From Actinomycetota bacterium (GTDB lineage Bacteria; Actinomycetota; AC-67): a stretch of DNA of 64,000 nucleotides. Within the stretch, counting starts at the first letter, position 1, and each line of letters starts with the position of its first letter. This document shows positions 3,228 to 40,288 of the stretch, in pieces. The DNA is taken from assembly GCA_036398095.1 (NCBI GenBank), contig DASWHR010000027.1, forward strand, positions 8,174-72,173. The letters run 5' to 3'. Below the pieces are notes generated by a model. That model saw only the letters and a program-made list of their open reading frames with translations, searched no databases and was not told the DNA's origin. Both the position numbers and the translations under genes were made by a program.

Positions 3228-4139
3228 TCAGCGCGTGATGGTGCTTCCGAGGAGGATTCCGTTGGCCCAGTAGGCGCCGGTTGGCCCGTCCGGAAGCAGG
3301 TCGTAGGTCGCGGATGCCTCGCGCCAAACGACATCGATGCCTTCGACGGTCGCGCCGTCCATCGGGTCCCCGGCCGCGAGCGCTCCGATGGGCCGGCCGC
3401 GGGCGTCGGGATGGGCGGATGCCGCGACCAGAACGCGGCCGTCGCTGAGCGTCAGGCGCAGCATCGGATGAGGCGATCCGACCGGACGCCGAACCGTCCG
3501 AAGGACCGGCGCGGCCACGCGGCGCCCGCGCGCGTCCATCGTCCATACAAGATCGCCGGAGCGGAGCGTGGTCACGTCGCGATCCCCCGACGGTGTCGCG
3601 ATCAGCGTGCCGGCCGCCAGGCAGATCGGACAGAACGCGTCGACGGGTCGCTGCGTCGCGACGTGAATCGAGCCGTTGCGGGCGATCGTGCCGTCGATCG
3701 CGGTCGCGTCGCCTTCGGTCCCCTCGTTAACGGTGAACCGCCAAGCGGCATCCGATGAGGTCAGCGCGATCACCCGGATTCGCTTGTGCACTTCGTAGAT
3801 GCGCATCGTCTGGTCGTCGGTGAGCGGCTCGCGATAGCCGAGCGACGCGCGGATCGCGGCGGCTTCCCTGGATCGTTCCGCGATTCGGTACCACGCGAGG
3901 CCGCGCTCGCGGCGCTCCTGCGGTCCGACGCCGACCGGATAATCGTCGGGATCGCAGAAGAAGATGTCGAAGCGCTCGTCCAGGGCGAGGCGCGCGTCCC
4001 ACTCGTCGGTGATCACGCCGCCGCTCGCCTGCGGCGAGGCCGACGGCGAAGGGGAGGCCGACGGCTCCGTGCGCTGTGGCCGATACGTGCAGGCGCCGGC
4101 AACCAGGGCCAGCAGCGCGACGAGCGCGATCCGCTTCAC
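3228..4139 (-). CDS. lipoprotein with C-terminal Hint (Hedgehog/intein-like) domain
   Basis: Lipobox VKRIALVALLALVAGAC, then a Ser/Pro-rich linker. The C-terminal block CPICLAAGTLIATPSGDRDVTTLRSGDLVW...LLPDGPTGAYWANGILLGST looks like a Hint module. The GTG start at 4139 overlaps the TGA of the upstream oxidoreductase (GTGA). Confidence 0.65.
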   Translation of the reverse strand: MKRIALVALLALVAGACTYRPQRTEPSASPSPSASPQASGGVITDEWDARLALDERFDIFFCDPDDYPVGVGPQERRERGLAWYRIAERSREAAAIRASLGYREPLTDDQTMRIYEVHKRIRVIALTSSDAAWRFTVNEGTEGDATAIDGTIARNGSIHVATQRPVDAFCPICLAAGTLIATPSGDRDVTTLRSGDLVWTMDARGRRVAAPVLRTVRRPVGSPHPMLRLTLSDGRVLVAASAHPDARGRPIGALAAGDPMDGATVEGIDVVWREASATYDLLPDGPTGAYWANGILLGSTITR

Positions 4140-5656
4140 GCTCCCAGCGCCACCCGCGCGGCGTTGCGGCCGGCTGTGCCCATCACGCCGCCGCCCGGCC
4201 GCGCTCCCGATCCGCACAGATACAGCCCCTCGATCGGTGTGCGGTAGTCGAAGCGCTCGCCGAAGGACTGCTCGGGCGTGATGGCGCCGTGAAAGATGTC
4301 ACCGCCGGTCAGCGCGAGCCGCTCTTCCAGGTCCGGCGCCGCGAGCACGTCCTCGGCCACGATCGCATCGCGAAGGTTCGGCGCGTAGGCCGCCAGCGCC
4401 GCCACCGCATTCTCGCGCGCTGCGGCGCGAACCAGGTCCCAATCCTCCGGAAGCGACGGCGCGTACTGCGTGAACGCGCTGAGCACGTGCCGGCCGGCCG
4501 GCGCCAGGGTCGGGTCGGTCGAGGACTGAAGAAAGACCTCCATGTACGGCCGCGGCGAGGGCATCGCGCCGCGAGCGTCCTCGCGCGCCTGCTGGATGTA
4601 TTCGATCGAAGGACAGATCTCGACCGTGCCGAAATGCTGCGACGCCGGCTCGGTTCCCGGCAGCATCGAAAACGACGGCAGCTCGCTCAGCGCCAGGTTC
4701 ACCTTCACCACCGCGCCCTCGTAGCGCCACGACGCGACCCGCTCGGCGAACGGCGACGGCAGCAGTCCCTCATCCAGCAAAGAACCGAACGTGACCGCCG
4801 GCGTCGCATTCGACAGCACCATCGGCGCTTCGACCAGCTTCCCGCCGGCAACCTCCACGCCTCGCACCCGCCCGCCGTCCACCACGATCCGCGCAACCGG
4901 CGACGAGACGCGGATGACCGCGCCCGCCTCACGCGCCGCCGCCGCGATCGCCTGCGTCACGCCGCCCATCCCGCCGCGCACGTACGCCCACGTCCCGTCC
5001 ATGCCGTTCAGCTCGCCGCCGATCGCGTGGAACGTCATGATCCAAGCGGTGCCGTCCTCCTCCGGCCCCAGCGCCGTCCCGATGATCCCTTGCCCGGCCA
5101 TCGGTCCTTGGATCTCGGGCGCGCCGAAGAACGAGCGCACCGTGCCGGCGCACGAGCCCGACACGCACATCCGGTACATCTCGTCTCCCAACGCGGCCCG
5201 CACGCCGTCCAGACCCGGCGGATCGGGCGACTCGACGAGCGGGCGGATCGCGGCGACCGCATCATCCCAGAATGCGCTCCAGCGCTTGTGTGCGTCCGCG
5301 TCGGCGGGACTGATCTTCGACAGCTCCGCGCGCGTGCGCTCGCCGTCGCGCCACACGAAGTAGTGGCGGCCGTCGGGCAGCGGCACGAACATCTGCGGAT
5401 CCTTCGGCGTGAACACCAGGCCGTGACGCGCCAGCTCCAGCTCGCGGTAGACGTCCGGCCGCAGCAGCGACAGCGAATACGACGCGGTCGAGATCCGGTA
5501 GCCCGGCGCGAGCTCTTCGGTGACGGCCGCGCCGCCGATCACGTCGCGCCGTTCCAACACCAGCACGCGCTTGCCGGCGCGCGCCAAGTAGGCGGCGGCG
5601 ACCAGTCCGTTGTGGCCGGCGCCGATCACGATCACGTCGTGTCGTTCGGCGATCAT
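4136..5656 (-). CDS. phytoene-desaturase (CrtI)-like FAD/NAD(P)-dependent oxidoreductase
   Basis: N-terminal Rossmann motif DVIVIGAGHNGLVAAAYLARAGKRVLVLE. About 500 aa with a C-terminal GSGARPGGGVMG motif typical of the CrtI/amine-oxidase fold. Confidence 0.75.
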   Translation of the reverse strand: MIAERHDVIVIGAGHNGLVAAAYLARAGKRVLVLERRDVIGGAAVTEELAPGYRISTASYSLSLLRPDVYRELELARHGLVFTPKDPQMFVPLPDGRHYFVWRDGERTRAELSKISPADADAHKRWSAFWDDAVAAIRPLVESPDPPGLDGVRAALGDEMYRMCVSGSCAGTVRSFFGAPEIQGPMAGQGIIGTALGPEEDGTAWIMTFHAIGGELNGMDGTWAYVRGGMGGVTQAIAAAAREAGAVIRVSSPVARIVVDGGRVRGVEVAGGKLVEAPMVLSNATPAVTFGSLLDEGLLPSPFAERVASWRYEGAVVKVNLALSELPSFSMLPGTEPASQHFGTVEICPSIEYIQQAREDARGAMPSPRPYMEVFLQSSTDPTLAPAGRHVLSAFTQYAPSLPEDWDLVRAAARENAVAALAAYAPNLRDAIVAEDVLAAPDLEERLALTGGDIFHGAITPEQSFGERFDYRTPIEGLYLCGSGARPGGGVMGTAGRNAARVALGA

Positions 5657-5696: not shown

Positions 5697-6725
5697 CTAC
5701 GACCATTGGATGCGCTCGAGCGCGCCGTCGCCGACGAGCGAAGCGAACGCGGCGGCGAGCGCGGGATCCAGATGATTGCCGGCGAGGCGTTCGATCTCGG
5801 CCAGCGATCGTTCGACCGGCCACCGCTTCTTGTAGGGACGCTCGTGCGTGAGCGCGTCGAAGACGTCGGTCACGGCGACGATCCGCGCGCTCAGCGGAAT
5901 GTCCTCGCCGGCGAAACCGGCCGGATAGCCGGCGCCATCCCAGCGCTCGTGGTGGAACAGTGCGATCTCTTGCGCGGCCTTCAACACGGCCGCGTGGCTG
6001 CCCCACAGGATCCGGCCGCCGATCACGGTGTGGGCGCGAACGCGTGCGAACTCGGACTCGTCCAGCGGTCCGGGCTTGAGCAGCGTCGCGTCCGGAATGC
6101 CGATCTTTCCGATGTCGTGCAGCGGCGCCGCAAGCCGGATCGTCTCGCACTCGCCGGCCGCCAGTCCGGCCGCCTCGGCGAGCAGTCCCGACGTTTCGCC
6201 GACGCGGCGCGTGTGCGCTGCCGTGTCGTCGTCGCGGTATTCGGCGGCGCGCACGAGCCGGTCCAGCACTTCGCGCCGCGCGTCCTCCAACTCGCCGGTC
6301 CGCTGACGCACCTGCTCTTCGAGCAGCGCGCCGGTGTCGGTCAGCAACCGGCGCAGCGCCACCGCCTCGAGTGCGCCGCGGACCCGTGCGATCAGCGTCG
6401 CTCGGTCGGCCGGATCCGCGATTGTGTCGCGCGCGCCTGCGGCCAGCAGCCGCGCCGAATCCGCCGCCGTCGCCGCCACGGCCAGCGTTGCGGCATCCCC
6501 CAGCAAGCGCAGCACGTCGACGGCTTCGTCGGGCGGCGCGTCCACGATTGTCAGCGCGACCGGCGTGAGCCCGGCCGGCGCGAGGCGCCCTGCGGGCTCG
6601 GTCCGGATCGCGGTGAAGCCGGCAGCGCGAAGCATGGTCGCGATCGCGTCCGAAGAGGACACCACCGCGATGGCCATCGCGGTGACGTTCCCGGGCGGCG
6701 GGACCGGGCTGCGCTGCGCGCTCAT
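5697..6725 (-). CDS. HD-GYP domain c-di-GMP phosphodiesterase with REC-like N-terminal domain
   Basis: HD motif HDIGKIGIP and GYP motif DGAGYPAG are present. I trimmed the listed ORF (to 7061) to the ATG at 6725 (MSAQRS...), because its upstream part is Arg/Pro-rich frame noise. The exact start is uncertain; an MAIAVV start is also possible. Confidence 0.7.
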   Translation of the reverse strand: MSAQRSPVPPPGNVTAMAIAVVSSSDAIATMLRAAGFTAIRTEPAGRLAPAGLTPVALTIVDAPPDEAVDVLRLLGDAATLAVAATAADSARLLAAGARDTIADPADRATLIARVRGALEAVALRRLLTDTGALLEEQVRQRTGELEDARREVLDRLVRAAEYRDDDTAAHTRRVGETSGLLAEAAGLAAGECETIRLAAPLHDIGKIGIPDATLLKPGPLDESEFARVRAHTVIGGRILWGSHAAVLKAAQEIALFHHERWDGAGYPAGFAGEDIPLSARIVAVTDVFDALTHERPYKKRWPVERSLAEIERLAGNHLDPALAAAFASLVGDGALERIQWS

Positions 6726-6876
6726 CTTGCCCGGCACTGTACGCGAAGCCGTGCGAACCGGGCATCCCTTCCCCGGTCGCGGAGAGCCGCGGAAGGATTG
6801 TGGGGATCTGCGTCCGCGACCTGGCGGAGGCCTCTTCGTTTGACCAGATGAAGGCTCACGCGACAAGGAGAGGCGC

Positions 6877-7131
6877 ATGGCACGCAGACTCGGGCTTGTG
6901 ATCGCAGGACTGCTCGTCTTCGGCGCGTCGCTCCCGGCGCATGCGGCCGGCGAGGCGGCCGCCGCGGAGATCGTTCGCGGCAGCGCGACCGCGGGATTCG
7001 AACGCCCGGCCGACGTGCCGTGGCTTCTGATCGTCGCCCTAATCGGCGCGGCGATTCTCACCCTTCAGGCCGGCTTGCGACCGCAGCCGCGCGCCGTGCG
7101 CGTGGCGATCAGGCCACCCAAGCAACGCTAA
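6877..7131 (+). CDS. small secreted/membrane protein (signal peptide + C-terminal TM)
   Basis: A strong AAGGAGAGG RBS lies 7 nt upstream. Signal peptide LVIAGLLVFGASLPAHA and a second hydrophobic segment WLLIVALIGAAILTL. 84 aa. Confidence 0.5.
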   Translation: MARRLGLVIAGLLVFGASLPAHAAGEAAAAEIVRGSATAGFERPADVPWLLIVALIGAAILTLQAGLRPQPRAVRVAIRPPKQR

Positions 7132-7208
7132 AGATCTGGCGGGGATCCATCGAGAGGCGGGAGCGTCGGCGGCTCTCGCCTCTCAGGTTCTTCCTGCGTC
7201 CGATCCGT

Positions 7209-7868
7209 TCATGAGCGGGTCATCTCGGCAGGCAGGATTCCCTCGAACCCGCGCATCATCCAGTTGACGGCGATGGCGACCATCTTGTCGCGCTCCAGCG
7301 GCTTGGAGGCCAGCCACCATCGGGCCAGCTCTTCGGCGACGGCGACGATCGCGCGGTTGTAGAGCTCGACGATCACGGGCGGTGCGTTGACCGGCTCGGC
7401 CAGCGCGTCGGCGCGGTCGGTCATGATCTTGATGATCTGCTCGCGCACGCGGATGCCCCGCTCGACGATCCCCGGGTCGGACGTGCCGGGCGGGCCGAAC
7501 ATCACCCGGAAGGCGCTCGGGTTGACGTCGGCGTAGTCCAGGAACGCGGCCAGACCGACCGTGAGCGCGTCGCGCAGCTTCATTCGCCCGGTCGAGGCGA
7601 GCACGCCGATCATGTGCGCCCGGAACCGTTCCTCTTCCCGTTCCAGCACCGCGAAGTAGATCTCTTGCTTGCCGCCGCTGAAGCAGTCGTACAGGACCGG
7701 CTTGGTCGTGCCCGCCTTGCGGCCGAGCGCCTCCATCGAGGCGTCCGCGAAGCCGCCCTGGGCGAACAGTTCCAGGGCCGCGTCCAAGACCAGGGGACGC
7801 CGCCTGGCCGGGCCGAGATACTCGGCTCGCTTGCCTTTCTGAGCCCGCGGGTCTGCCATGACCGCCAT
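7209..7868 (-). CDS. TetR-family transcriptional regulator
   Basis: N-terminal HTH LDAALELFAQGGFADASMEALGRKAGTTKPVLYDCFSGGK. About 220 aa. Divergent from the Tat-amidohydrolase gene. Trimmed to the ATG at 7868. Confidence 0.8.
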   Translation of the reverse strand: MAVMADPRAQKGKRAEYLGPARRRPLVLDAALELFAQGGFADASMEALGRKAGTTKPVLYDCFSGGKQEIYFAVLEREEERFRAHMIGVLASTGRMKLRDALTVGLAAFLDYADVNPSAFRVMFGPPGTSDPGIVERGIRVREQIIKIMTDRADALAEPVNAPPVIVELYNRAIVAVAEELARWWLASKPLERDKMVAIAVNWMMRGFEGILPAEMTRS

Positions 7869-8225
7869 TGTGGCCCCCGACCGGGGCGGCAACGCAAGGA
7901 TTCGGACGAAACTTTCTTAGCGGACAACCCTCAGGTTCTTGACGATTCGTCGCGAAACGATCACAATGCTACGGCGCGGTAGGTTTTCGCGCCCGGCCGA
8001 TCCGGCGGCGATCCCGACTGGACGGAAGGATTCCGGCGAGAGAGTCACGAACTAGACACCACGCACCGCATGCAGCAAACGTTGAAGAAACCGACCCGGG
8101 AGCCGGCCATGATTCGTTGGAAGCGTTCATGGGAGGACCTGTCCGAGGCCCTTCCGCTCGACGTAATGCCTTGCTCGAACGGCGAGTTCTATCCGCCGCC
8201 CCCGACCAAGGAACAAAGAGCCGTC

Positions 8226-10034
8226 ATGGAGATCGCCGACCGCGAGGTCGAGCGCGTCCGCAAGAAGTTCAACATGAACCGCCGCGACTTCGTTCGCACC
8301 ACCGCGGCCATGGCGATCTGCTTCTGGGCCCGCGACGTCGTCATCGGCGGCGGCGGCGCGCAGGCGCACAACACCACCACCACCGACGCATGCGATCTTG
8401 AATGGGAAGAAGAAGTCGGCCTGTTCACCCTCAACAACCTGCCGGGCGAGTTCGTCTTCGACATCCAGTCCCACCACGTCGAGTCCGACGGCATGTGGCG
8501 CGTCACCAACCCCGGCTTCCACGCGTTCTTCGCCGGGATCTGGTCGCAGGCCGGTCCGATCACCGGTGCGCGCCCGGGCATGCGCAGCGGCGGCAACCTC
8601 GATCCCGGATCGAGCAACTTCGCGGTGCGCGGCGCCGGCGCCGGCGAACTCGACCCGATCGAAAACCTGTCGCGCTTCCACTACATGAAAGAGCTGTTCC
8701 TGGATTCGGCGACGACGATGACGGTGCTCTCGGCCGTGCCGGCCGCGCCCGACATCACCCAGCCGCTGCCGATCGAGCGCGCTGCGCTGACCGTGCAGAT
8801 GGTCAACGAGCTCGCCGGATCGCAGCGCACGGTCATGCACGCGTTCGCGATGCCGAACCGCGGCTCGGCCGGGACCATCGCCTCGTCGCTGGGCCAAGAG
8901 CCCGTCTACATGCAGCGCGAATTCGAGATCATGGAGGAGCGCGCGGTCAAGTACGGTTCGATCATCCGCGGCTGGAAGACCTACCCCGCATGGGGTGACA
9001 TTCCCTACGCGAGCGGCTGGTTCTTCGACGACGAGCTGGTCGGGCAGCGCTTCATCGACCACGTTCGCGCCCTCAGCCAGAAGTACCCGAAGCTGCCGCC
9101 GAACATCGCGACGCACAAGGGCTTCGCGCTTCCCGCGTTCGACCAGCGGGCCGCCTCGCCCCGCGACATCGGCCCCGCCGCTTCCCGCAACCCGGATGTG
9201 AACTTCATCGTCTACCATTCGGGCTTCGACGGCGAGACCGTCGGCCCCTACGGCGGCGACACGGCCGATATCTCCACCGACGGCGCCAAGGGCGACCGCC
9301 GCGTGAGTTCGGCCGACCGTATGGTGGACTCGCTGATCAAGTCGCTTCGCGAGAACAACTGGGACGCGACCCGCTTCGGCACCGTGCCGGGCGTCAAGTG
9401 GGCGAACGTGCCAAACGTCTTCGCCGAGATCGGCTCGACCTGGCGCGACGTCATGGGCCAGATCCGCCGCGGCGAGCCCGTCTCAAGCACACCGGCCGCC
9501 GCGATCCATCTGCTCGGCAAGCTCATCACCTACGTCGGTCCGAAGCGGATCGCGTGGGGAACCGACTCGCTGTGGTTCGGATCGCCGCACTCCGAGATCG
9601 TCGGCTTGAGGCGCGTGGACTACAGCCACGCGCCCGGGCTGTGGGACTTCTACAAGCTCCCGTACGCGATCGACGGTGACGCCGACGACCCGCGGGTGGA
9701 CACGCGCAACTGGGTCAACTACACGCCGTCGTCGTCGAACGCGTCGCTGCCGGGCTGGCCGACGGATTCCAAGGCCCACCCCGAGCGGTCGATCCGCAAC
9801 TGGATCTTCGGCCGCTCCGCCGCCGAGGTGTATCGCGTCGACGCCGACGCGCACATGCTCGACCGGGGCACGCATCCGCTCAAGTGCGACGAGGTGCAGA
9901 AGATCCGCGACGCCTACATCGTGAACCAGTACACGCCGAAGGAGCAGGTGCCGATGGCGTCCAACACGCTGATCGGTGCGCGCACTGCCTCCGAGCTCAA
10001 AACCGAAAGGATGAATCAGCCGTGGGCGCCGTAA
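8226..10034 (+). CDS. Tat-exported amidohydrolase-family metal-dependent hydrolase
   Basis: Twin-arginine motif NRRDFVRTTAAMAICFWA. The C-terminal part (WGTDSLWFGSPHSEI) resembles the amidohydrolase TIM-barrel family. The listed ORF starts at 8070, but codons 8070-8225 are A/T-ending and look non-coding. From the ATG at 8226, GC3 is typical of the other genes. Confidence 0.55.
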   Translation: MEIADREVERVRKKFNMNRRDFVRTTAAMAICFWARDVVIGGGGAQAHNTTTTDACDLEWEEEVGLFTLNNLPGEFVFDIQSHHVESDGMWRVTNPGFHAFFAGIWSQAGPITGARPGMRSGGNLDPGSSNFAVRGAGAGELDPIENLSRFHYMKELFLDSATTMTVLSAVPAAPDITQPLPIERAALTVQMVNELAGSQRTVMHAFAMPNRGSAGTIASSLGQEPVYMQREFEIMEERAVKYGSIIRGWKTYPAWGDIPYASGWFFDDELVGQRFIDHVRALSQKYPKLPPNIATHKGFALPAFDQRAASPRDIGPAASRNPDVNFIVYHSGFDGETVGPYGGDTADISTDGAKGDRRVSSADRMVDSLIKSLRENNWDATRFGTVPGVKWANVPNVFAEIGSTWRDVMGQIRRGEPVSSTPAAAIHLLGKLITYVGPKRIAWGTDSLWFGSPHSEIVGLRRVDYSHAPGLWDFYKLPYAIDGDADDPRVDTRNWVNYTPSSSNASLPGWPTDSKAHPERSIRNWIFGRSAAEVYRVDADAHMLDRGTHPLKCDEVQKIRDAYIVNQYTPKEQVPMASNTLIGARTASELKTERMNQPWAP

Positions 10035-10555
10035 TCCGTCGAGCCAGCGTTCTCATCGCCGTTGTCGCATTGCTCGTTCCGTCGGGCGCGAGCGCCGCGA
10101 CGACCACGTACGGCCGTCCGTTCGCGAACGGTCCGAGCGGCGGCGACGAGTTCAACACGATCGAGCGTGACGGCGCGACCGGCGAGATGTCCATCGTCCG
10201 CCTCTATCCCACGCCGGTAGGCGGCGCGCTTGGCTGCGGCGGAAGCGGCGGCTGGGCCACGTTCGAGATCGCGCACACTGCGGTCTCAACGATCGAGTCG
10301 GTTGCCGTGGCCTACACCGGAGCGCTCGTCGATCCGTACTCGTTCGTTACGGTCGCCGTCTATCAGGACGGCGCGTTCGTGGACTCGAAGGTCGTTCGCG
10401 GACCCGTGCTGGGAGACGGGACCGTCGAGCTGGAGCCGCGGACCGCCGCAAGCGGCGACGTGACCATCTGGTTCGGCCTGCAGATGTCGTCGGCCTGCCC
10501 CAACATCGGCATGGCCGAGGCCGTCTTCGAGTCGGTGACGGTAACCGAAGCGTAG
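10022..10555 (+). CDS. secreted hypothetical protein
   Basis: GTG start at 10022 (VGAVIRRASVLIAVVALLVPSGASA is a signal peptide) overlaps the end of the upstream gene. No known domain. A Cys pair CGGSGGWATF is present. Confidence 0.5.
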   Translation: MGAVIRRASVLIAVVALLVPSGASAATTTYGRPFANGPSGGDEFNTIERDGATGEMSIVRLYPTPVGGALGCGGSGGWATFEIAHTAVSTIESVAVAYTGALVDPYSFVTVAVYQDGAFVDSKVVRGPVLGDGTVELEPRTAASGDVTIWFGLQMSSACPNIGMAEAVFESVTVTEA

Positions 10556-10559
10556 TTCG

Positions 10560-10934
10560 TTACGCCGGCGCGACGGCCAGCAGGCCATTCATGTCCGGAT
10601 GATTCGAGCAGTAGAAGCGGTACGTGCCCGGCTCCAGGCCGGGCACTCCGTTTACCTCGCTCACTTGGCCGGGCCCGATCTGGCCCGCCCAGAACAGCGG
10701 TGTCGCGTCGGCACGCAAGTCCTCCGAGACGATCGAATGGAAGCCGCCGACGGTGTCCGCGCTCGTGAACGTCAGCGACGCGCCCTGCTCGACCACAAGC
10801 GGCAGTTCCGGAACCTCGGTATCGCCCGGCAGGTACAGGAATGCCGCGACCGTGATAACGCCCGGCGTCGGATCGGCGGCGTGAGCGGGGACCACCCCGC
10901 TCAGGGCAAGCAGCATCGCAAGAGTGCGTCGCAC
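10560..10934 (-). CDS. cupredoxin (plastocyanin/amicyanin-like blue copper protein), secreted
   Basis: Type-1 copper ligand set H...C-x2-H-x2-M is visible (GGFHSIV ... GTYRFYCSNHPDMNG). Signal peptide VRRTLAMLLALSGVVPAHA. Start is GTG 10934 or ATG 10916. The listed ORF extends further upstream as frame noise. Confidence 0.75.
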   Translation of the reverse strand: MRRTLAMLLALSGVVPAHAADPTPGVITVAAFLYLPGDTEVPELPLVVEQGASLTFTSADTVGGFHSIVSEDLRADATPLFWAGQIGPGQVSEVNGVPGLEPGTYRFYCSNHPDMNGLLAVAPA

Positions 10935-11021
10935 GATGCTTCGTATTCGCCCTCGCAGCGTTCGGGTCCTCCCCCGTACGCTTTGATGGAACCGAACCGG
11001 TCCGGGCCGAGTCTTGACACC

Positions 11022-11537
11022 ATGGAGGATGCCGCCACGAGCCAGCGAATCGAGGCCGGTCGGCTCGAAGGGGGCCGTCTGGAGGCGTTGTATCGAACGC
11101 ACGCCGTCAAGGCGGCTCGAACGGCCTATCTGCTCACCGGAGACGCCGCGCTGGCCGACGATCTGGTGCAAGAGGCATTCGTGCGGCTCGCCGGCCGGTT
11201 CGTCGATTGGCGCCGCGAAGACGCGTTCGAAGCGTACCTTCGGCGCACCATCGTCAACCTCGCTCGGACGCGCGCGCGCCGGATGCAGCGCGAGCGCGAG
11301 CGTCACGAGCAACAGGTTGCCGCTCCGGTTCCGCCGCCGCCCGACGTCGCGGACCTGATCGCGGTGCGTGACTCGCTGATGCGCTTGACCGAGCGCCAGC
11401 GCACCGCCGTCGTGCTTCGCTACTACGAGGATCTGCCCGAAGCCGAAATCGCCGATCTGATCGGCTGCCGCCCGGGAACCGTCAAGAGCCTGCTGTCGCG
11501 TGCGATGGACACGCTGCGCGAGGAGCTATCGAGGTGA
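11022..11537 (+). CDS. ECF-type sigma-70 family RNA polymerase sigma factor
   Basis: Region 2 (AYLLTGDAALADDLVQEAFVRL) and region 4 (RQRTAVVLRYYEDLPEAEIADLIGCRPGTVKSLLSRA) are present. Trimmed to the ATG at 11022. About 171 aa. Confidence 0.85.
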   Translation: MEDAATSQRIEAGRLEGGRLEALYRTHAVKAARTAYLLTGDAALADDLVQEAFVRLAGRFVDWRREDAFEAYLRRTIVNLARTRARRMQRERERHEQQVAAPVPPPPDVADLIAVRDSLMRLTERQRTAVVLRYYEDLPEAEIADLIGCRPGTVKSLLSRAMDTLREELSR

Positions 11538-12991
11538 GAACCGTGGATATCAAGGAGAAGCTCGTCAACCTGGCCGAGAGCCAGATGCCCGCCGCGCCCG
11601 CGATCCGCCCCGCGACGCTGCGTCGCGCGAAGCGTCGCCGTGCCGCGGTCGCGGCCGCAACCTCATTCGCGGTCGTCGTCGCCGGGCTCGGCGTCTGGGC
11701 GGGTGTCGATTCTTTCTCGCGCAGCCGGCCGGTCCCGCCGGCCGCGCAGCAGGGTCGCTTCGAGACGTTTCCGCTGGCCGGTCGCGAAGCGAGCGACCTG
11801 GCCGCCTCCGGGTCGGTTGCGTGGGCTGCGGCGGGGGAGACCGTGTTTCGGCTCGGCGATACGCCGGCCACGTTCGAGATCGAAGAGCCGGTCGTGGACG
11901 TCGCGGCGGATCCACGCGGGGCGTGGGTCGCGTCGATGCGAGACGACGACCGGTGCGACGGGTCGCTCGACGTGCTGATCGATTGCGCGACGGCGACGCG
12001 GATCTCCGCCACCGGCGGCCTGGAGCGCTCGATCCCGGTTCCGCGCGCGGGCGGCGGGCTTGCGATCGGCAACGGCGTCGTCTGGATCGGCGGCCGCACC
12101 GAGGTGGTCCGGCTCAATCCTCCGGACGACCCGTTCATCGCGCCGCTTCGCGACGTCACGCGCGTTGTGGACGTGGTCACGATGCCCGGAATGGTGTTCG
12201 TGCTCGCGGAAGCGTCGGGCAATCGCGCGGACCGCGTGCTGATCGCGCTCGAAGATCACCGCGGCAGCGAGATTCGGCGTGTCCCCCTGCCGGGGGCGCT
12301 CGGCATCGCGCAAGGGCTCGGCTCATTGTGGGCGTGGGGGTCGCGGGACGAGGTCGGGGTCCTGCAGATCGAGCCGAGCAGTCTGTCGACCCTGCGCATT
12401 ATTCCGCTCGCCACCGCCCGGGAGCCGGGCGCGCCGATCGTCGTCTCATCGCTCGCGTTCTCGGGCACGACCGTCTACGCGGCCGCGTTGTTCGCCGACG
12501 AGGGACACGTGTATACGGTTGACGTCACCTCGGGCGACGTGACCGGAACGATCGCGGCGGTCGCCGCGCCCGTCGCTGCCGCGGCCGGCACGGAATCGGT
12601 GTGGCTCCTGCACGCCGAACCGGCTCGGGCGGCGCGCATGACGATTCCCGATCCGTGGGCCGCGCACGCGCCGGTCGTGTCCGGCGAGATGCAGAACGTC
12701 CCGCAGCGTCCGGGCCTTTCCACTCCGCGTATCTCCTGGGTGGACCGGTTCGAACGCGCCGGCGACGAATTGACGATCACGTTTCTCGGCGGGATGTATC
12801 CGTGCGGCATGCTCGATCACGTCGAGCTTTGGCGGGACGGCGATACGGTCAAGGTATTGGTCGTGGTGGGAACGCGGCCGGCTCCCGACGGCAATTTCGC
12901 GTGCAAATCGGTGGGTCGTAGCCGAACGACGGTCGTGCAGCTGCCGGCCGACTGGCGAAGCCTCGCCGTGGACGACGCCTCCCGCCGGTAG
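11534..12991 (+). CDS. putative membrane-anchored anti-sigma factor with large beta-propeller-like ectodomain
   Basis: GTG start overlaps the sigma stop (GTGA). There is a short cytoplasmic N-terminus, one TM (AAVAAATSFAVVVAGLGVWAGV), then about 420 aa of repeated ...VW..G....V.RL.P... blades. Confidence 0.6.
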   Translation: MRTVDIKEKLVNLAESQMPAAPAIRPATLRRAKRRRAAVAAATSFAVVVAGLGVWAGVDSFSRSRPVPPAAQQGRFETFPLAGREASDLAASGSVAWAAAGETVFRLGDTPATFEIEEPVVDVAADPRGAWVASMRDDDRCDGSLDVLIDCATATRISATGGLERSIPVPRAGGGLAIGNGVVWIGGRTEVVRLNPPDDPFIAPLRDVTRVVDVVTMPGMVFVLAEASGNRADRVLIALEDHRGSEIRRVPLPGALGIAQGLGSLWAWGSRDEVGVLQIEPSSLSTLRIIPLATAREPGAPIVVSSLAFSGTTVYAAALFADEGHVYTVDVTSGDVTGTIAAVAAPVAAAAGTESVWLLHAEPARAARMTIPDPWAAHAPVVSGEMQNVPQRPGLSTPRISWVDRFERAGDELTITFLGGMYPCGMLDHVELWRDGDTVKVLVVVGTRPAPDGNFACKSVGRSRTTVVQLPADWRSLAVDDASRR

Positions 12992-13090
12992 AGCGCGCTC
13001 CGGCGACCGCCGGTTCGATCCATGCGCCGGGCCGGCTCGAAGACCGCATGCCGCGGCGTTAATGTCACACCCTCGTTGTACGTTGTTTGC

Positions 13091-14317
13091 ATGCTTTCGG
13101 TATCGGTTTCGGAACTCGATCAAGTCACTGCCGAGCTGCATGCGGCGATCGATCGGGTGCAGCGGGTGGCCGCGCGCGCGTCGGACGGCGCGACCGATCT
13201 TGCGGTGAGCGCCTTGCGGGCCGCGGATCGCCTGACCGCGACCGCGACATCGGTCATCGCGCGCGGCGGCTTCTCCGCGGGAGCGGGACTGCCCGCACCG
13301 ATCATGCTGCAGATGGAGGCGCGCACCACAAGCTGGGATGCGCGCACCATCACCCGCATCGCCGGCATCCTTACCGGCATGCCCGACACAGCCTCCGCAT
13401 TCGAAGAAGGCGTGCTGTCTTGGTCGCAGATCCGTGCGATCACCGACGCAGCCAAACCCTGCGACACCGCCGGACGCGAACGCATCGACCGGCTCATCGC
13501 CCGCCGCGCCACGAGCCAATCCAACGCTGACCCCGACCAGATCGTCGCCGACGTCCAAGACGAAGCCGCCACCATCCGCAAGGACCTCACCGAGCGCCGC
13601 GAGCAGCGCGCCGTCGAGCAAAGTTTCATCGCATTCCAGCCGCGCCTGGACGGGCGAACCTTCTTCTACGGCGAAGGGGACCACGCCTCGGTCGCCGGCC
13701 TCGTCGACAGCCTCGACGCCGCAGCCGGCCCACCCAAACCCGACGGCCGCCCCCGCGCCCAACATCGCTACGACGCCCTCATCGCCCTCACCAGCCAAAA
13801 CCCGGGCGGCAACCGGGCGAGCAGGGCGCGGCCGCGGATCATCGCAGCCCTTGACCTTGCAGAACTCACTCGCAACGAACAGGACGCCGCCGCACGCATC
13901 CTGTGGGCCCTGACCGGCCGGCCACCACGCCTGTCACCCATCGGCACCCAAACCCTGCTCTGCGACGCCGACGTGCTCCCCATCATCTTCGACAACGGCC
14001 AACCCATCGCCATCGGCCACCCGACCTCGCCGATCCCGCGTCGCATCCGCCGCGCAATCGAAGCTCGCGACCAAGGCTGCCGATTCCCCGGCTGCCACGC
14101 TCCCCTTGACTGGACAGACCTGCACCACATCATCCACCGCATAAACGGCGGCCGATCCGCACCCGAAAACCTCATCAGCCTGTGCCGCCGCTGCCACCGG
14201 CGCATCCACGACCACGGCTGGAAAATCACCATCAACCCCGGCGGCAACATCATCTTCACCCGCCGCGGCCGCCGCTACGAAAGCCCGCCACCGACCGGCC
14301 CGCCGCTCCTCGAATGA
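13091..14317 (+). CDS. DUF222 + HNH endonuclease domain protein (REP13E12-like family)
   Basis: C-terminal HNH block (LHHIIHRINGGRSAPENLISLCRRCHRRIHDHGW) with the N-terminal domain architecture of the actinobacterial 13E12-repeat proteins. ATG at 13091. Confidence 0.8.
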   Translation: MLSVSVSELDQVTAELHAAIDRVQRVAARASDGATDLAVSALRAADRLTATATSVIARGGFSAGAGLPAPIMLQMEARTTSWDARTITRIAGILTGMPDTASAFEEGVLSWSQIRAITDAAKPCDTAGRERIDRLIARRATSQSNADPDQIVADVQDEAATIRKDLTERREQRAVEQSFIAFQPRLDGRTFFYGEGDHASVAGLVDSLDAAAGPPKPDGRPRAQHRYDALIALTSQNPGGNRASRARPRIIAALDLAELTRNEQDAAARILWALTGRPPRLSPIGTQTLLCDADVLPIIFDNGQPIAIGHPTSPIPRRIRRAIEARDQGCRFPGCHAPLDWTDLHHIIHRINGGRSAPENLISLCRRCHRRIHDHGWKITINPGGNIIFTRRGRRYESPPPTGPPLLE

Positions 14318-14329
14318 CCAGTCTCAGCG

Positions 14330-14686
14330 TTATTGCGTCAGCGATGCGACCCCGAATCCGGTGTTGAACCGCTTGCACCAGATCAGCACGCTCTTGAACG
14401 TCGAAAGGTCGGTGCCGGCCGGGATCGCGTAGTTCTGATCACCGATATTTCCTTTGAGCCGGCCCAGGTTGATTCCCGCGTCGGCGATGACGTCGTCCGC
14501 AAGTCTCGCAACGGTTATCGAACCAGGACCACGAGCACCAGCAGCGACAGTATTCCCGCAGCCGGTAGCGCGCAGCCTCCCACGGCCTTGCCGATCTTTC
14601 GCTGGCGGCCGCTTCGCGTCAACGGAATCCCGGTCGTGCGCGAAATTCGGCTCTTCGCGCGCGTCACGCCGGTGAGGCGCTTCCAT
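14330..14686 (-). pseudogene. possible frameshifted small membrane-anchored protein
   Basis: One reverse frame encodes a TM-like segment KIGKAVGGCALPAAGILSLLVLVVLVR and stops at 14515. The -1 frame continues as a protein-like domain ...ITVARLADDVIADAGINLGRLKGNIGDQNYAIPAGTDLSTFKSVLIWCKRFNTGFGVASLTQ. No single intact ORF spans both. Confidence 0.3.
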
Positions 14687-14702: not shown

Positions 14703-17363
14703 TCAACGCGACAGCTCCCGCACCACGGCCGGCAGGATTCCGCCCTCGCGGAAGTAGCGCACCTCGGTCGGGGTGTCCAGCCGGCAGCGCGTGTCGAACT
14801 CGACGACCGAGCCGTCGTCGCGACGCGCGACGACCCGCAACGTCTGGCCCGGCTTCAAATCCGACAGGCCGGTGATGTCGAAGACCTCGCGGCCGGTCAA
14901 TCCCAGCAGCGCGGCCGTCTCGCCCGGCGCGAATTCCAGCGGCAGCGCACCCATCTGCGCGAGGTTCGACCGGTGGATCCGCTCGAACGACTCGGCGATG
15001 ACCGCGCGCGCGCCCAGTAACGTCGTGCCCTTCGCGGCCCAGTCGCGACTCGACCCCGACCCGTACTCCTTGCCGGCCAGGATCACAAGTGGCACGCCCG
15101 CCTCGCGATACAGAACCGACGCGTCGAAGATCGTCATCGTCTCGCCGTCCGGCAGATGCGCCGTCACGCCGCCTTCGCTGCCCGGCACGAGCAGGTTGCG
15201 CAGCCGGATGTTGGCGAACGTGCCGCGCATCATCACCTCGTGGTGGCCGCGGCGCGCGCCGTAGGAATGCAGCTTGCCCGGCGCGACGCCTCGCTCGCCC
15301 AGCCAGCGCGCCGCCGGCGAGTCTTTCGCGATCGATCCGGCCGGCGAGATGTGATCGGTCGTGACCGAGTCGCCGACGAACACCAGACAGCGCGCGCCCG
15401 TGATATCGGAAACCGGCGGCGGCTCCATTCCGATGCTTGCGACGAACGGCGGCTCGGTGATGTAGGTCGAAGACGGATCCCACTCGTACAGGTCGCCTTC
15501 GGGAACCGGCAGCGCGGCCCATCGCTCGTCGCCGGTGAACAGGCCTGCGATGCGGCTGCGATACGACTCGGGATTCATCGCGGACGCGACGGTCGAGGCG
15601 ATCTCGGAATCCGCCGGCCAGATGTCGCGCAGGAACACGGGAGCGCCACCGGAATCCAGGCCGAGCGGCTCGGTGTTGAGATCGATGTCGACCGTTCCCG
15701 CCAGGGCATAGGCGACGACCAGCGGCGGCGAACCGAGGAAGGAGAACCGAACCTGCGGATGGATGCGGCCTTCGAAGTTGCGGTTGCCGCTCAGAACGGC
15801 CGCGACGGCAAGCGCGTTCTCGTCCACCGCCTCGGCGATCGGATCCAGCAGCGGACCGGAGTTACCAATACAAGTGGTACATCCAAAGCCGACCGCGAAG
15901 AAGCCGATCTTCTCCAGATCGTCGAGCAGGCCGGCGCGCTTCAGATAGTCGATCACGACCGGGGAACCCGGCGCCAAGGACGTCTTGACCGCCGGATCCA
16001 CGCGCAGGCCGCGTGCGACCGCGTTGCGCGCCAGCAGACCCGCGCCGATCATTACCGACGGATTCGAGGTGTTCGTGCACGAGGTGATCGCCGCGATCGC
16101 GACCGTGCCGTCCCCGACGTGCGTCGAGCCGGCCGGCAGCGACACCGGGATCTTTCTGATCGCCGGCTCGCCGTCTTCATCGCGCAGCGCCGCCAATTCG
16201 CGGCGGAACGTGCGGCCGACCTCGCCGACGACGACGCGATCTTGCGGCCGGCGCGGCCCGGCGAGGGACGGCTCGATCGTGGACAGGTCCAGGTCGAGCA
16301 TCTCGCCGAACACGGGCTCGGCGCCGTGATCGTGCCAGAGTTGCTGCTCCTTGCAGTAGCGTTCGACCAGATCGACCAGGTCGTCGCTGCGGCCGGTCGC
16401 GCGCAGGTAGGCGATCGTCTGCGCATCGACGGGGAAGAAGCCCTCCGTCGCGCCGTACTCGGGCGACATGTTCGCGATCGTGGCGCGGTCGGGGACGGTC
16501 AAGGCCGCCAGGCCCGGCCCGTAGAACTCGACGAACTTTCCGACGACGCCGTGTGCGCGCAGCATCTCGGTCAGCGTCAGCACCAGATCGGTTGCCGTTG
16601 CGCCCGAGGGCATCGAGCCGGACAGCTTCAAGCCGACGACGGCCGGGGTCAGCATTGTGACCGGCTCGCCCAGCATCGCCGCTTCGGCTTCGATGCCGCC
16701 CACGCCCCAGCCGAGCACGCCCAGCCCGCCGATCATCGTGGTGTGCGAGTCGGTGCCGACGAGCGTGTCGGGATAGGCGACACCGTCGGCGCCGGTCATG
16801 ACCACGTCGGCGAGAAACTCCAAGTTGACCTGATGCACGATCCCGCTTCCCGGGGGCACGACTCGCATCTTTCGGAACGACTTCTGGGCCCATCGAAGGA
16901 ACGCGTAGCGTTCGCCGTTGCGCTCGTACTCCAATCCGACGTTGCGTTCGAAGGCTTCGCGCGAGCCGAAGAAGTCGACGATCACCGAATGGTCGATCAC
17001 CAGGTCGACGGGTACGCGCGGGTTGACGCGCGAGGTGTCTCCGCCGAGTCGCTCGACTGCGCCGCGGATCGCGGCCAGATCGGCCACGACCGGCACGCCG
17101 GTGAAGTCCTGCAGCACGACGCGTCCCGGCAGAAACGGAAACTCGACGGCGGTGTCACCGGGCCAGTCTGCGAGCGCGTCCAGATGCAACCGCTCCGCGC
17201 CGGCGCCCTGATGGCGCAGCACGTTTTCGAGGAAGATGCGCACGACGAACGGCAGCCGCGCGATCGCGCCCGCATCCAGAACGCGATCAAGACGGTAGAG
17301 CGCGACGCTGCCGCCGCCGGCCTGCAGCCGGTCCAGCGCGCCGAGCGGGTCGTTGAGGCTCAT
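14703..17363 (-). CDS. acnA: aconitate hydratase A
   Basis: Full-length aconitase (~886 aa) with Fe-S ligand motifs SCTNTSN and GCTTCIGNSG and the C-terminal swivel domain. Trimmed to MSLNDPLG at 17363. Confidence 0.95.
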   Translation of the reverse strand: MSLNDPLGALDRLQAGGGSVALYRLDRVLDAGAIARLPFVVRIFLENVLRHQGAGAERLHLDALADWPGDTAVEFPFLPGRVVLQDFTGVPVVADLAAIRGAVERLGGDTSRVNPRVPVDLVIDHSVIVDFFGSREAFERNVGLEYERNGERYAFLRWAQKSFRKMRVVPPGSGIVHQVNLEFLADVVMTGADGVAYPDTLVGTDSHTTMIGGLGVLGWGVGGIEAEAAMLGEPVTMLTPAVVGLKLSGSMPSGATATDLVLTLTEMLRAHGVVGKFVEFYGPGLAALTVPDRATIANMSPEYGATEGFFPVDAQTIAYLRATGRSDDLVDLVERYCKEQQLWHDHGAEPVFGEMLDLDLSTIEPSLAGPRRPQDRVVVGEVGRTFRRELAALRDEDGEPAIRKIPVSLPAGSTHVGDGTVAIAAITSCTNTSNPSVMIGAGLLARNAVARGLRVDPAVKTSLAPGSPVVIDYLKRAGLLDDLEKIGFFAVGFGCTTCIGNSGPLLDPIAEAVDENALAVAAVLSGNRNFEGRIHPQVRFSFLGSPPLVVAYALAGTVDIDLNTEPLGLDSGGAPVFLRDIWPADSEIASTVASAMNPESYRSRIAGLFTGDERWAALPVPEGDLYEWDPSSTYITEPPFVASIGMEPPPVSDITGARCLVFVGDSVTTDHISPAGSIAKDSPAARWLGERGVAPGKLHSYGARRGHHEVMMRGTFANIRLRNLLVPGSEGGVTAHLPDGETMTIFDASVLYREAGVPLVILAGKEYGSGSSRDWAAKGTTLLGARAVIAESFERIHRSNLAQMGALPLEFAPGETAALLGLTGREVFDITGLSDLKPGQTLRVVARRDDGSVVEFDTRCRLDTPTEVRYFREGGILPAVVRELSR

Positions 17364-17442
17364 TGGGACTCCTTGTGTCGCAGAAAACGAGAGCGTGGTT
17401 GCTCTCATCCTACGACGCCGGAGCGAGCCGCGTTTTCCGCGT

Positions 17443-40245: not shown

Positions 40246-40288
40246 CGCTGTTGCTCGCCGCTCGATGCGGCCGATACGCTCGCCGTCC

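Follow-up and report, generated by a model that had tools for sequence, protein, structure and literature searches.

The core of the gene block analysed here is, with a probability of about 0.65, a self-contained, positively autoregulated pair of an ECF sigma factor and a membrane anti-sigma factor, located in a 64,000-nucleotide stretch of DNA (hereafter, the window). An initial annotation of the same DNA had combined this pair with a neighbouring cupredoxin and a secreted protein into an envelope copper/redox-sensing circuit with an unusual sensor domain. All of the genes that it claimed are present where it placed them; its interpretation as a whole is partly supported.

The sigma gene (positions 11022–11537, plus strand) encodes a protein of 171 aa. 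A Pfam search revealed sigma70 regions 2 and 4 (Sigma70_r2, Sigma70_r4_2, Sigma70_ECF), the best NCBIfam match was TIGR02983 SigE-fam_strep with 137.1 bits, just under the cut-off of 141.55, and the relatives found in the PDB are ECF sigma factors. The product is a genuine ECF (group 4) sigma factor, 81–83% identical to its orthologues in L001 and L003. The gene pair comes from an uncultured soil actinobacterium (Actinomycetota). The initial annotation had pointed to position 10934 for the promoter search, which is in fact the start of the cupredoxin gene on the minus strand. Sequence comparison makes ATG 11022 the most likely start of the sigma gene, since the counterpart of a second in-frame start at 10986 is out of frame in L001 and L004 carries no ATG there; this upstream ATG is in frame in the window and in L003.

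Directly ahead of ATG 11022 lies a putative ECF-type promoter (positions 10988–11014, plus strand), consisting of a –35 element GGAAC (10988–10992), an 18-nt spacer, and a –10 element GTCT (11011–11014). A pattern search for GGAAC-N18-GTCT gave a single match within the block; about 1.8 matches per 64 kb are expected by chance, so the significance of the promoter rests on its position and conservation. The same element with the same spacing is present in L001, L003/L012, and L004–L006, while the spacer sequence and the flanks have diverged, with a 25-nt indel among the surrounding differences. The distance from the element to the start codon is 7 nt in the window, 8 nt in L001, 7 nt in L003, and 8 nt in L004, representing four lineages. 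The promoter carries the AAC and TC hallmarks of Streptomyces coelicolor sigmaE promoters, in which they form the core of the –35 and –10 elements, respectively (PMC6767563). Its end only 7 nt before ATG 11022 implies a leaderless or near-leaderless sigma mRNA, and the sequence suggests that the operon is autoregulated. As the upstream ATG is in frame in the window and L003, part of the conserved promoter block could be coding in these two.

The second gene of the pair (positions 11534–12991, plus strand) encodes a 485-aa single-pass membrane protein, a putative anti-sigma factor. As noted in the initial annotation, its start overlaps the sigma stop in the sequence GTGA (GTG 11534 and TGA 11535–11537); an alternative start, GTG 11543, lies no more than 6 nt from that stop. 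The coupling is also found in L001, L003, and L004–6, and the two genes form a translationally coupled two-gene operon. The protein has no Pfam or NCBIfam match, and only five full-length representatives were retrieved at E ≤ 1e-30 in a search of 1.84 billion proteins. The single transmembrane segment proposed initially is borne out: hydropathy (Kyte–Doolittle) exceeds 1.6 at residues 37–58 only (positions 11642–11707), an Ala/Gly-rich stretch that is helical, with low confidence, in the structure model. The sequence RRAKRRR ahead of this lone hydrophobic segment indicates type II topology (N-in, C-out), as do two invariant cysteine pairs on its C-terminal side. Residues 1–36 (positions 11534–11641) make up the presumed sigma-binding cytoplasmic module, in which a motif alignment shows a short helix of the pattern D-I/V-K/R-x-x-L-x-x-x-A, a Pro-rich turn, and T-x-x-R-A-K/R-R-R-R. 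The model places one helix at residues 6–16 and another from residue 26 into the membrane, the pLDDT of the N-terminal part being 33–54. No relative of this motif was found among PDB structures, and no Pfam or NCBIfam family covers it.

Comparison with relatives strongly suggests that the 485-aa protein is an anti-sigma factor. Of 151 representative relatives, 26 begin with the N-terminal motif, and most of these 26 have a propeller as their ectodomain; wherever the context of a motif-bearing relative was readable, an ECF sigma gene lies directly upstream (10 of 10 cases: L001, L002, L003, L004–6, L008/9, L010/11, L013, L014, L017, and L018). The relative P0005, which retains the propeller and the C-terminal domain, lacks both the motif and an adjacent sigma gene, while P0078 carries the motif ahead of a different ectodomain, which has the C-terminal domain and an extra segment and no propeller. 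The cytoplasmic and transmembrane parts are better conserved than the sensor part: the N-terminal module is 39% and the propeller 24% identical to P0006, and the transmembrane segment, the best-conserved of all, is 73% identical to P0002. From this comparative context, we infer that the 36-residue N-terminus is the sigma-binding module.

The same protein could instead be an envelope protein that is co-transcribed with the sigma gene and depends on the sigma factor, for example a signal-anchored enzyme or binding protein, or a positive modulator, with the sigma factor being controlled solely through its transcription or through a regulator encoded elsewhere. Such control is known for S. coelicolor sigmaE, a member of the related TIGR02983 family which is run by a two-component system (PMC7826278). 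A cytoplasmic part of only 36 aa with no match to known anti-sigma families or structures would fit this reading, as would the occurrence of the ectodomain without a sigma gene in P0005 and the weak matches of propeller relatives to the enzyme-type propellers Vgb lyase, glutamine cyclotransferase, and SGL. However, a plain signal-anchor would neither keep a specific cytoplasmic motif across such different ectodomains nor give adjacency to ECF sigma genes in 10 of 10 readable cases, the ectodomain is the less conserved part of the protein, and fusions of the transmembrane-propeller unit to kinase, cyclase, and BTAD outputs mark it as a sensor module. We therefore regard a role other than that of an anti-sigma factor as unlikely.

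Structure prediction, which the initial annotation had proposed as a check, supports a propeller fold of the ectodomain. In the AlphaFold2 model, the propeller part (pLDDT mostly 80–90) contains 29 strands arranged in seven blades of four strands, closed by an N-terminal strand, and Foldseek retrieved the seven-blade propellers WDR5, YncE, YVTN, and ATG16L1 with TM-scores of about 0.7 relative to the target and E-values from 1e-10 down to 5e-12. The blades do not fill the ~420-aa ectodomain as initially proposed: the propeller spans about 300 aa (residues ~70–372, positions 11741–12649), and a separate small all-beta domain of about 85 aa follows (residues ~395–481, positions 12716–12976), a member of a domain family that carries no annotation. 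Two cysteine pairs are invariant: Cys141 and Cys151 in the propeller, and Cys424 and Cys457 in the C-terminal domain, where the latter two form a predicted disulfide. Relatives of the protein match the DUF6923, DUF5074, and Vgb_lyase repeats. The propeller, located on the cell exterior, is probably a sensor, and such a sensor is not unusual within this clade. Its description as unusual was overstated, given the number of representatives that share the motif and membrane helix and the presence of the transmembrane-propeller module on other outputs, namely cyclases, a Ser/Thr kinase, and a BTAD (SARP-type) regulator. Service to such different outputs speaks for a general sensor of the envelope or of ligands and against one dedicated to copper.

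The N-terminus of the anti-sigma candidate, with its short helix, Pro-rich turn, and basic RAKRRR, would hold the sigma factor at the membrane. By analogy with other single-pass anti-sigma factors, an extracytoplasmic signal sensed by the propeller and the C-terminal domain would inactivate the anti-sigma factor, most likely through regulated proteolysis via the Ala/Gly-rich membrane helix and less likely through a conformational change, and the freed sigma factor would direct transcription of its leaderless operon and of further targets in the genome. A gene for a site-1 or site-2 protease was not found near the sigma pair; as neither protease genes nor target promoters of the sigma factor were found, the mechanism of release and the regulon can only be inferred.

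The other genes of the block bear on the proposed copper/redox circuit. The gene at positions 10560–10934 (minus strand) encodes a secreted type-1 ("blue") cupredoxin of 124 aa (PF13473 Cupredoxin_1, 27.2 bits at a cut-off of 27) with a signal peptide ending in AHA↓A; three orthologues retain all of the ligands His66, Cys109, His112, and Met115, and its identity to the orthologues is 51–54%. It is a separate unit, transcribed divergently from the sigma gene. The gene at positions 10022–10555 (plus strand), convergent with the cupredoxin gene as initially described (the stop codons are 4 nt apart), encodes a 177-aa secreted protein of no assigned function with a Sec-type signal (RR, a hydrophobic core, ASA↓A) and two conserved cysteines; it has no Pfam or NCBIfam match and only 15 homologous clusters. 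Its start overlaps the stop of a gene for a 654-aa protein (positions 8070–10034, plus strand), so that the left border of the block drawn at 10022 cuts through an operon. The 654-aa protein is weakly similar to Amidohydro_2 (PF04909, 22.5 bits, below the cut-off), has no PDB relative, and is 84% identical in L003. This operon, 8070–10555, has a sigma70-like promoter at 7939–7967, adjoined by a divergent TetR gene. Among less closely related loci, the same overlapping gene pair is located beside a PQQ dehydrogenase gene in L015, and the 177-aa homologue is directly followed by one in L016. The 177-aa gene therefore belongs with the 654-aa gene rather than with the sigma operon.

A single circuit comprising the 177-aa protein, the cupredoxin, the sigma factor, and the propeller protein would imply a propeller that responds to copper or to the cupredoxin's state, and control of both the cupredoxin and the secreted protein by the sigma factor. 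A genuine type-1 copper protein does lie divergently, 87 bp from the sigma start, this arrangement recurs in L001 and L003/L012, and in the distant L008/L009, whose sigma factor is 47% identical, a lipoprotein cupredoxin gene is found just upstream of the sigma/propeller pair. However, the L008 cupredoxin gene follows another sigma/anti-sigma pair at a distance of 36 nt and is probably part of that operon. L004–6 lack the divergent cupredoxin arrangement, as the gene upstream of the sigma gene runs in the same direction as the sigma gene, and in L010 the upstream gene encodes an acyl-CoA dehydrogenase. The gene order of the block is preserved in L001 and L003, close relatives that have a DUF222/HNH gene in common with the window as well; since synteny is limited to such relatives, the conserved order may simply reflect relatedness. 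The search for ECF promoters proposed in the initial annotation turned up the putative promoter of the sigma gene itself, which is the only conserved intergenic block, while no conserved ECF-type promoter was detected upstream of the cupredoxin gene or of the 8070–10555 operon. A mirrored –35-like sequence in the window, GGACCCGAAC, is not kept in relatives. The 177-aa gene is the coupled second gene of an operon with a sigma70-like promoter, and its homologues in L015 and L016, which adjoin PQQ dehydrogenase genes, have neither a sigma nor a cupredoxin gene nearby. Genes for CopA, CsoR, CopC/D, or a multicopper oxidase were not found within about 10 kb. Altogether, a copper/redox circuit uniting the whole block appears quite improbable.

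Among known proteins, the cupredoxin resembles small type-1 copper proteins of the amicyanin/plastocyanin type in having the same His, Cys, His, and Met ligands, a signal peptide, and a Pfam score at the threshold. Its C-x2-H-x2-M loop aligns with, and is equal in length to, the CTPHPFM loop of the azurin variant 2fta, which is the amicyanin loop. Its similarity to solved cupredoxins is otherwise very low (best E 0.006), and its close relatives are confined to this lineage.

The predicted seven-blade fold of the ectodomain is that of the YncE, YVTN, DUF6923, and DUF5074 propellers, the last two of which are matched by relatives of the protein. The window protein itself, however, is below every Pfam threshold, is anchored in the membrane, is encoded by a gene coupled to a sigma gene, and has a predicted extra disulfide loop (Cys141–Cys151) and the additional C-terminal domain.

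The sigma factor shares the two-domain sigma2/sigma4 architecture of the SigE family (TIGR02983; ECF38/39/51/222 clade), its best family match, albeit at a score slightly below the cut-off. In this actinobacterial clade, one common type of putative single-pass anti-sigma factor is reported to be encoded by a gene adjoining that of the sigma factor (PMC7826278, Casas-Pastor et al. 2021). S. coelicolor sigmaE (ECF39) is run by the CseBC two-component system rather than by an anti-sigma factor (PMC7826278), whereas the window block contains no two-component genes.

With class I single-pass anti-sigma factors the anti-sigma candidate shares a gene directly 3' of the sigma gene, N-in single-pass topology, a presumed extracytoplasmic signal input, and a probably autoregulated operon. 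RseA, RsiW, RsiV, and mycobacterial RskA, RslA, and RsdA belong to this class, from which the sigma factor is freed by regulated intramembrane proteolysis. The candidate differs from them in having only 36 cytoplasmic residues and no match to the ASD, zf-HC2, or RskA families. The class I domain has about 100 aa and four helices (mean length 101 ± 33 aa), and domains shorter than 50 aa count as potential members of class II, the type to which CnrY belongs, the two helices of which touch sigma4 and sigma2 (PMC7406223). The cytoplasmic part of the candidate, being too short for a class I domain, would have to act as a class II one. The likeness to CnrY lies in the very short (<50 aa) sigma-binding part, the single membrane helix, and, with low confidence, the two helices modelled at residues 6–16 and from 26 onward. 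CnrY itself is almost devoid of an ectodomain and depends on CnrX, a separate sensor in the periplasm. The anti-sigma candidate of the window, from a different host phylum, has a large propeller fused on.

The region around the putative sigma/anti-sigma pair was mapped using the raw sequence together with a list of ORFs, with families assigned by Pfam and NCBIfam. The window has a G+C content of about 68%, and MAGs labelled 'Actinomycetota bacterium' are the source of its relatives. A TetR regulator gene (7209–7892, minus strand) is followed on the plus strand by genes for a 654-aa protein with a weak Amidohydro_2 match (8070–10034) and for a 177-aa protein with a signal peptide and no assigned family (10022–10555). 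Next come a gene for a 124-aa cupredoxin on the minus strand (10560–10934), the ECF sigma gene (11022–11537, plus strand), the gene for a 485-aa protein with one transmembrane (TM) helix (11534–12991, plus strand), a DUF222/HNH gene (13022–14317, plus strand), and a 901-aa ORF that is aconitase-like by eye (14703–17408, minus strand). All elements listed in the initial annotation are present in the sequence, and the raw sequence shows the sigma stop codon and the next start overlapping as GTGA. Position 10934, which had been proposed as a site to look upstream of for an ECF promoter, is the start of the minus-strand cupredoxin gene rather than of the sigma gene, and the left border originally drawn at 10022 cuts an operon, as the 177-aa gene already begins within the last codons of the 654-aa gene. 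A search of positions 7000–14500 against Rfam gave zero matches, and no paralogues of the N-terminal motif, the propeller, the C-terminal domain or the cupredoxin were found in the window. Another 654-aa ORF (40265–42229), considered as a relative of the 8070–10034 product, proved to be unrelated. Further upstream of the block, the window encodes an HD-GYP-type (HD_5) protein whose N-terminus is long and of low complexity (5697–7061, minus strand) and a Hint-domain protein (3228–4217, minus strand), which have no connection to the pair.

The sigma factor, 171 aa long, matches Sigma70_r2 (42 bits), Sigma70_r4_2 (57 bits) and Sigma70_ECF in Pfam; it consists of regions 2 and 4 only, as is characteristic of ECF (group 4) sigma factors, which lack regions 1.1 and 3 and measure about 170–200 aa, and its PDB relatives are all ECF sigma factors. 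The best-scoring family was TIGR02983 (the Streptomyces SigE family; 137.1 bits, E 4.8e-40), with a score marginally under the NCBIfam curated cut-off of 141.55, which leaves the protein just outside this family. The ATG at 11022 is most likely the start codon. A further ATG upstream, at 10986, shares the reading frame of the gene in the window and in the related locus L003; in L001 it is out of frame, and L004 lacks it.

The sequence GGAAC-N18-GTCT was identified at 10988–11014, ending 7 nt before the sigma ATG. Chance alone would produce the bare pattern about 1.8 times per window, so the argument for a promoter is one of position and conservation. With unchanged spacing, the element precedes the sigma start by 8, 7, and 8 nt in L001, L003, and L004-6, respectively, and it is also present in L012, while the spacer sequence and the remaining intergenic region diverge among the relatives, including a 25-nt indel. 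Like the promoters of S. coelicolor sigmaE, for which a -35 AAC and a -10 TC serve as defining features (PMC6767563), the element upstream of the sigma operon has AAC at -35 and TC at -10. An autoregulated ECF operon was defined as one carrying directly upstream a conserved -35 element with AAC and -10 element with (G)TC separated by a spacer of about 16–18 nt, and the putative promoter at 10988–11014 displays all of these features. It can be read as positively autoregulated and as giving rise to an mRNA with no leader or almost none; Actinobacteria commonly have leaderless transcripts. A second exact match to the motif (61583–61610, minus strand) overlaps the 3' end of the ORF at 60414–61595 and points antisense into it, and was attributed to chance.

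Downstream, a DUF222/HNH endonuclease gene with 59% identity lies about 30–60 nt after the anti-sigma gene in all three syntenic loci (3569–4795 in L001 and 9573–10757 in L003). Such genes are usually regarded as mobile, which makes this fixed position unexpected; the gene may be co-transcribed with the sigma operon.

Hydropathy analysis revealed a lone TM segment in the 485-aa protein at residues 37–58, preceded by RRAKRRR, and an N-in topology is therefore predicted. The cytoplasmic part thus comprises 36 residues, for which no Pfam or NCBIfam matches were obtained, and carries the motif D-I/V-R/K-x-x-L-x-x-x-A ... P ... T-x-x-R-A-K/R-R-R-R, immediately followed by the TM helix. A profile search detected this motif in 26 of the 151 listed representative relatives, in each case N-terminally. 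Wherever the contig of a motif-bearing relative could be read, that is in 10 of 10 cases, an ECF sigma gene was located directly upstream (P0002 in L001, the MAG copy in L003, P0003 in L002, P0006 in L004-6, P0007 in L013, P0014 in L008/9, P0023 in L010/11, P0028 in L014, P0116 in L017, and P0126 in L018), ending a few nucleotides from the start of the relative's gene or overlapping it. P0005, which served as a negative control, has the propeller and the C-terminal domain on a plain hydrophobic anchor without the motif, and no sigma gene is adjacent to it. The neighbouring, co-transcribed sigma gene that would be expected of an anti-sigma factor is kept across the relatives. The cytoplasmic and TM parts are also better conserved than the propeller, at 53–73% versus 43% in P0002 and 36–39% versus 24% in P0006, and in P0078 the motif precedes another ectodomain, composed of the C-terminal domain and an extra segment without the propeller. 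At the sequence level, this pattern is the signature of a putative sigma-binding module joined to interchangeable sensors.

The full-length structural model, based on a six-sequence alignment, contains 29 strands at residues 71–370, mostly with a pLDDT of 80–90, and predicts seven four-stranded blades closed by an N-terminal strand (residues ~70–372). Foldseek comparison with the PDB retrieved seven-blade propellers, namely WDR5, ATG16L1, YncE, and the YVTN surface-layer propeller, with E values from 1e-10 to 5e-12 and TM-scores of about 0.7 relative to the targets. The repeat motif noticed in the initial annotation maps onto blade strands B and C. The proposal of an ectodomain made of propeller blades thus agrees with the model and the Foldseek matches as regards the blades, which do not run throughout, as a separate domain occupies the C-terminal part. 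The family has two invariant cysteine pairs, Cys141/Cys151 and Cys424/Cys457, as expected for candidate extracytoplasmic disulfides.

The C-terminal part of the ectodomain is a small unannotated beta domain with a conserved Cys pair (residues 395–481, window positions 12716–12976). It was modelled with a pLDDT of 92, and no convincing relative was found in the PDB. The domain stands alone in 62 of the 151 representative proteins, about half of them with a lipobox, and occurs in tandem in seven. Being unannotated and widespread in small actinobacterial lipoproteins, it represents a candidate new domain family. The 260-aa protein P0078 is composed of the N-terminal motif, a TM helix, and this beta domain, followed C-terminally by one more segment, PASTA-like by eye.

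A word-indexed search revealed two relatives of the 485-aa protein besides itself, and an exhaustive HMMER search of 1.84 billion proteins yielded five full-length representatives at E<=1e-30 and about 200 partial relatives; a genome scan with the family found a single MAG. The specific family is rare; the sensor class is common but uncharacterised. A TM-plus-propeller module of the DUF6923/DUF5074 type is fused to adenylate/guanylate cyclase domains in P0083 and P0110, to a Ser/Thr kinase in P0129, and to a BTAD/SARP regulator with a periplasmic binding domain in P0144; its occurrence in several signalling fusions suggests a general extracytoplasmic input module. The sensor had initially been considered unusual for an anti-sigma factor, a view that does not hold for this clade, where the same module is found on cyclase, kinase, and BTAD outputs. 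In a search of the available literature we found no experimental report of an anti-sigma factor with a propeller ectodomain. Within 5.6 kb of the related locus L008 (19–5646), three tandem ECF sigma/anti-sigma-like pairs are encoded. Each pair has an ectodomain of its own: that of a 224-aa protein in one, and propellers of the DUF6923 and PD40 types in the other two. By eye, a 155-aa lipoprotein of the same locus looks like the 224-aa protein's ectodomain.

The initial annotation combined the cupredoxin, the 177-aa protein, the sigma factor, and the propeller protein into an envelope copper/redox circuit. The cupredoxin gene itself appears to be a real type-1 copper cupredoxin gene by sequence: the product matches PF13473 (27.2 bits at a cut-off of 27), has a signal peptide, and contains His66, Cys109, His112, and Met115, invariant in three orthologues, with the C-x2-H-x2-M loop aligning to CTPHPFM. 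A metagenome scan for the cupredoxin family found one locus, L012, with the same gene layout as L003 and probably from the same lineage. The divergent arrangement of the cupredoxin and sigma genes recurs in L001 and L003/L012, and in L008/L009 a lipoprotein cupredoxin is encoded upstream of a sigma/propeller pair that is 47% identical, so that cupredoxin genes lie beside related sigma/anti-sigma pairs in two separate lineages. The L008 cupredoxin gene follows 36 nt behind a different sigma/anti-sigma pair, the first of the L008 tandem, and the gene upstream of sigma is co-directional in L004-6 and encodes an acyl-CoA dehydrogenase in L010. Identities to the window proteins are 79–84% for the amidohydrolase-like protein, 81–83% for sigma, 63–65% for the 177-aa protein, 59% for HNH, 51–54% for the cupredoxin, and 49–50% for the anti-sigma factor. 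Since the three syntenic loci are close relatives that have even the HNH gene in common, their synteny may simply be inherited. The contigs of more distant proteins with the motif, only 1.5–3.6 kb in length, are too short to judge an enrichment of nearby cupredoxin genes.

Shared regulation would be expected to leave an ECF promoter before the neighbouring genes, as the initial annotation proposed for 10934 and 10022. GGAAC-N18-GTCT does not occur upstream of 10934 on the minus strand, of 8070, or of 10022, and the region before the cupredoxin gene is unconserved apart from the sigma promoter block. Relaxed promoter scans for the cupredoxin gene gave only intragenic GCAAC matches. An inverted repeat (10960–10969 and 10988–10997) places a mirrored GGACCCGAAC on the minus strand before the cupredoxin gene, at the same distance from its GTG as that of the sigma promoter from its ATG; its -10 reads ATAC, it is absent from L001 and L003, and it was rejected as a cupredoxin promoter because it is not conserved. 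No copper-homeostasis genes were found within ~10 kb. The suggested copper link is currently only a neighbourhood observation, and we regard a copper/redox circuit as improbable. A more novel reading is similarly improbable: the propeller and C-terminal domain would sense copper, or else whether the divergently encoded cupredoxin is metallated or in which redox state it is, and the 36-residue tail would be a structurally new minimal anti-sigma module. Two observations leave room for it, namely the cupredoxin genes beside related pairs in two separate lineages and the lack of a known structural relative of the motif. If true, the two features together would amount to an ECF pathway of Actinomycetota that responds to copper or redox state and has no relation to CnrYXH or CorE.

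The overlapping 654-aa and 177-aa genes have a context of their own. This overlap recurs in L015 (1725–4204; small protein with 49% identity), and a homologue of the 177-aa gene is also present in L016 (region 256–2738); in both loci one or two PQQ-dependent dehydrogenase genes follow directly, and neither sigma nor cupredoxin genes are present. This hints at an extracytoplasmic oxidoreductase context for the gene pair, and one could speculate that in the lineage of the window a cupredoxin might serve as the electron acceptor of such a system. The region's only match to a sigma70-like promoter, TTGACG-17-CACAAT at 7939–7967 (plus strand), lies between the divergent TetR gene and the 8070 operon, and the inverted repeat TCGT...ACGA in its spacer could be a TetR operator. 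For the 654-aa protein, the Amidohydro_2 hit is sub-threshold and no solved relative was found in the PDB; a twin-arginine-like motif, RRDFVRTTAAMAICFWA, occurs about 68 residues in, after an N-terminal extension whose amino-acid sequence is conserved in L003. The 177-aa and cupredoxin genes are convergent, with stop codons only 4 nt apart (10553–10562) and no terminator-like site found between them; the predicted transcripts must overlap at their 3' ends.

The third major route of bacterial signalling runs through ECF sigma/anti-sigma pairs, and to our knowledge the signal and the mode of anti-sigma binding are not known for most actinobacterial ECF groups. With the coupled operon, promoter-like element, N-in single-pass topology, and propeller plus beta-domain ectodomain established by sequence or prediction, the comparative context suggests that the 36 N-terminal residues would bind and sequester the sigma factor. 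By analogy with other single-pass anti-sigma factors, a signal sensed outside the membrane would inactivate the anti-sigma factor, with regulated proteolysis through the Ala/Gly-rich TM helix as the probable route, and the released sigma factor would amplify its own operon and activate further targets. The locus would not surprise a specialist; it cleanly illustrates a design that seems to be common and is experimentally untouched, in which a cytoplasmic tail of about 35 residues that tracks ECF sigma genes is combined with one membrane helix and a seven-blade propeller. If the tail proves to bind sigma, it would define the way in which a minimal anti-sigma module works in Gram-positive bacteria and would offer compact orthogonal sigma/anti-sigma parts for synthetic circuits.

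Compared with known anti-sigma factors, the 36-aa cytoplasmic part cannot be a class I anti-sigma domain, a four-helix domain of about 100 aa, often of the zf-HC2 or RskA type, since this class averages 101 +/- 33 aa (PMC7406223). Shorter domains are possible members of class II, like CnrY, in which two helices contact sigma4 and sigma2 (PMC7406223). The length fits this class (<50 aa), and the model places helices at residues 6–16 and from 26 onward, with a pLDDT of only 33–54. The profile of the motif gave only spurious PDB matches (e.g., poly(ADP-ribose) glycohydrolase, E 0.02) and, being too short, retrieved a single 71-aa fragment from an index of 5.8 billion proteins. Casas-Pastor et al. 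noted that one putative anti-sigma type is common to the actinobacterial ECF222/51/38/39 clade (PMC7826278). The locus presented here, an actinobacterial ECF sigma factor with a putative single-pass anti-sigma factor, is of a known kind.
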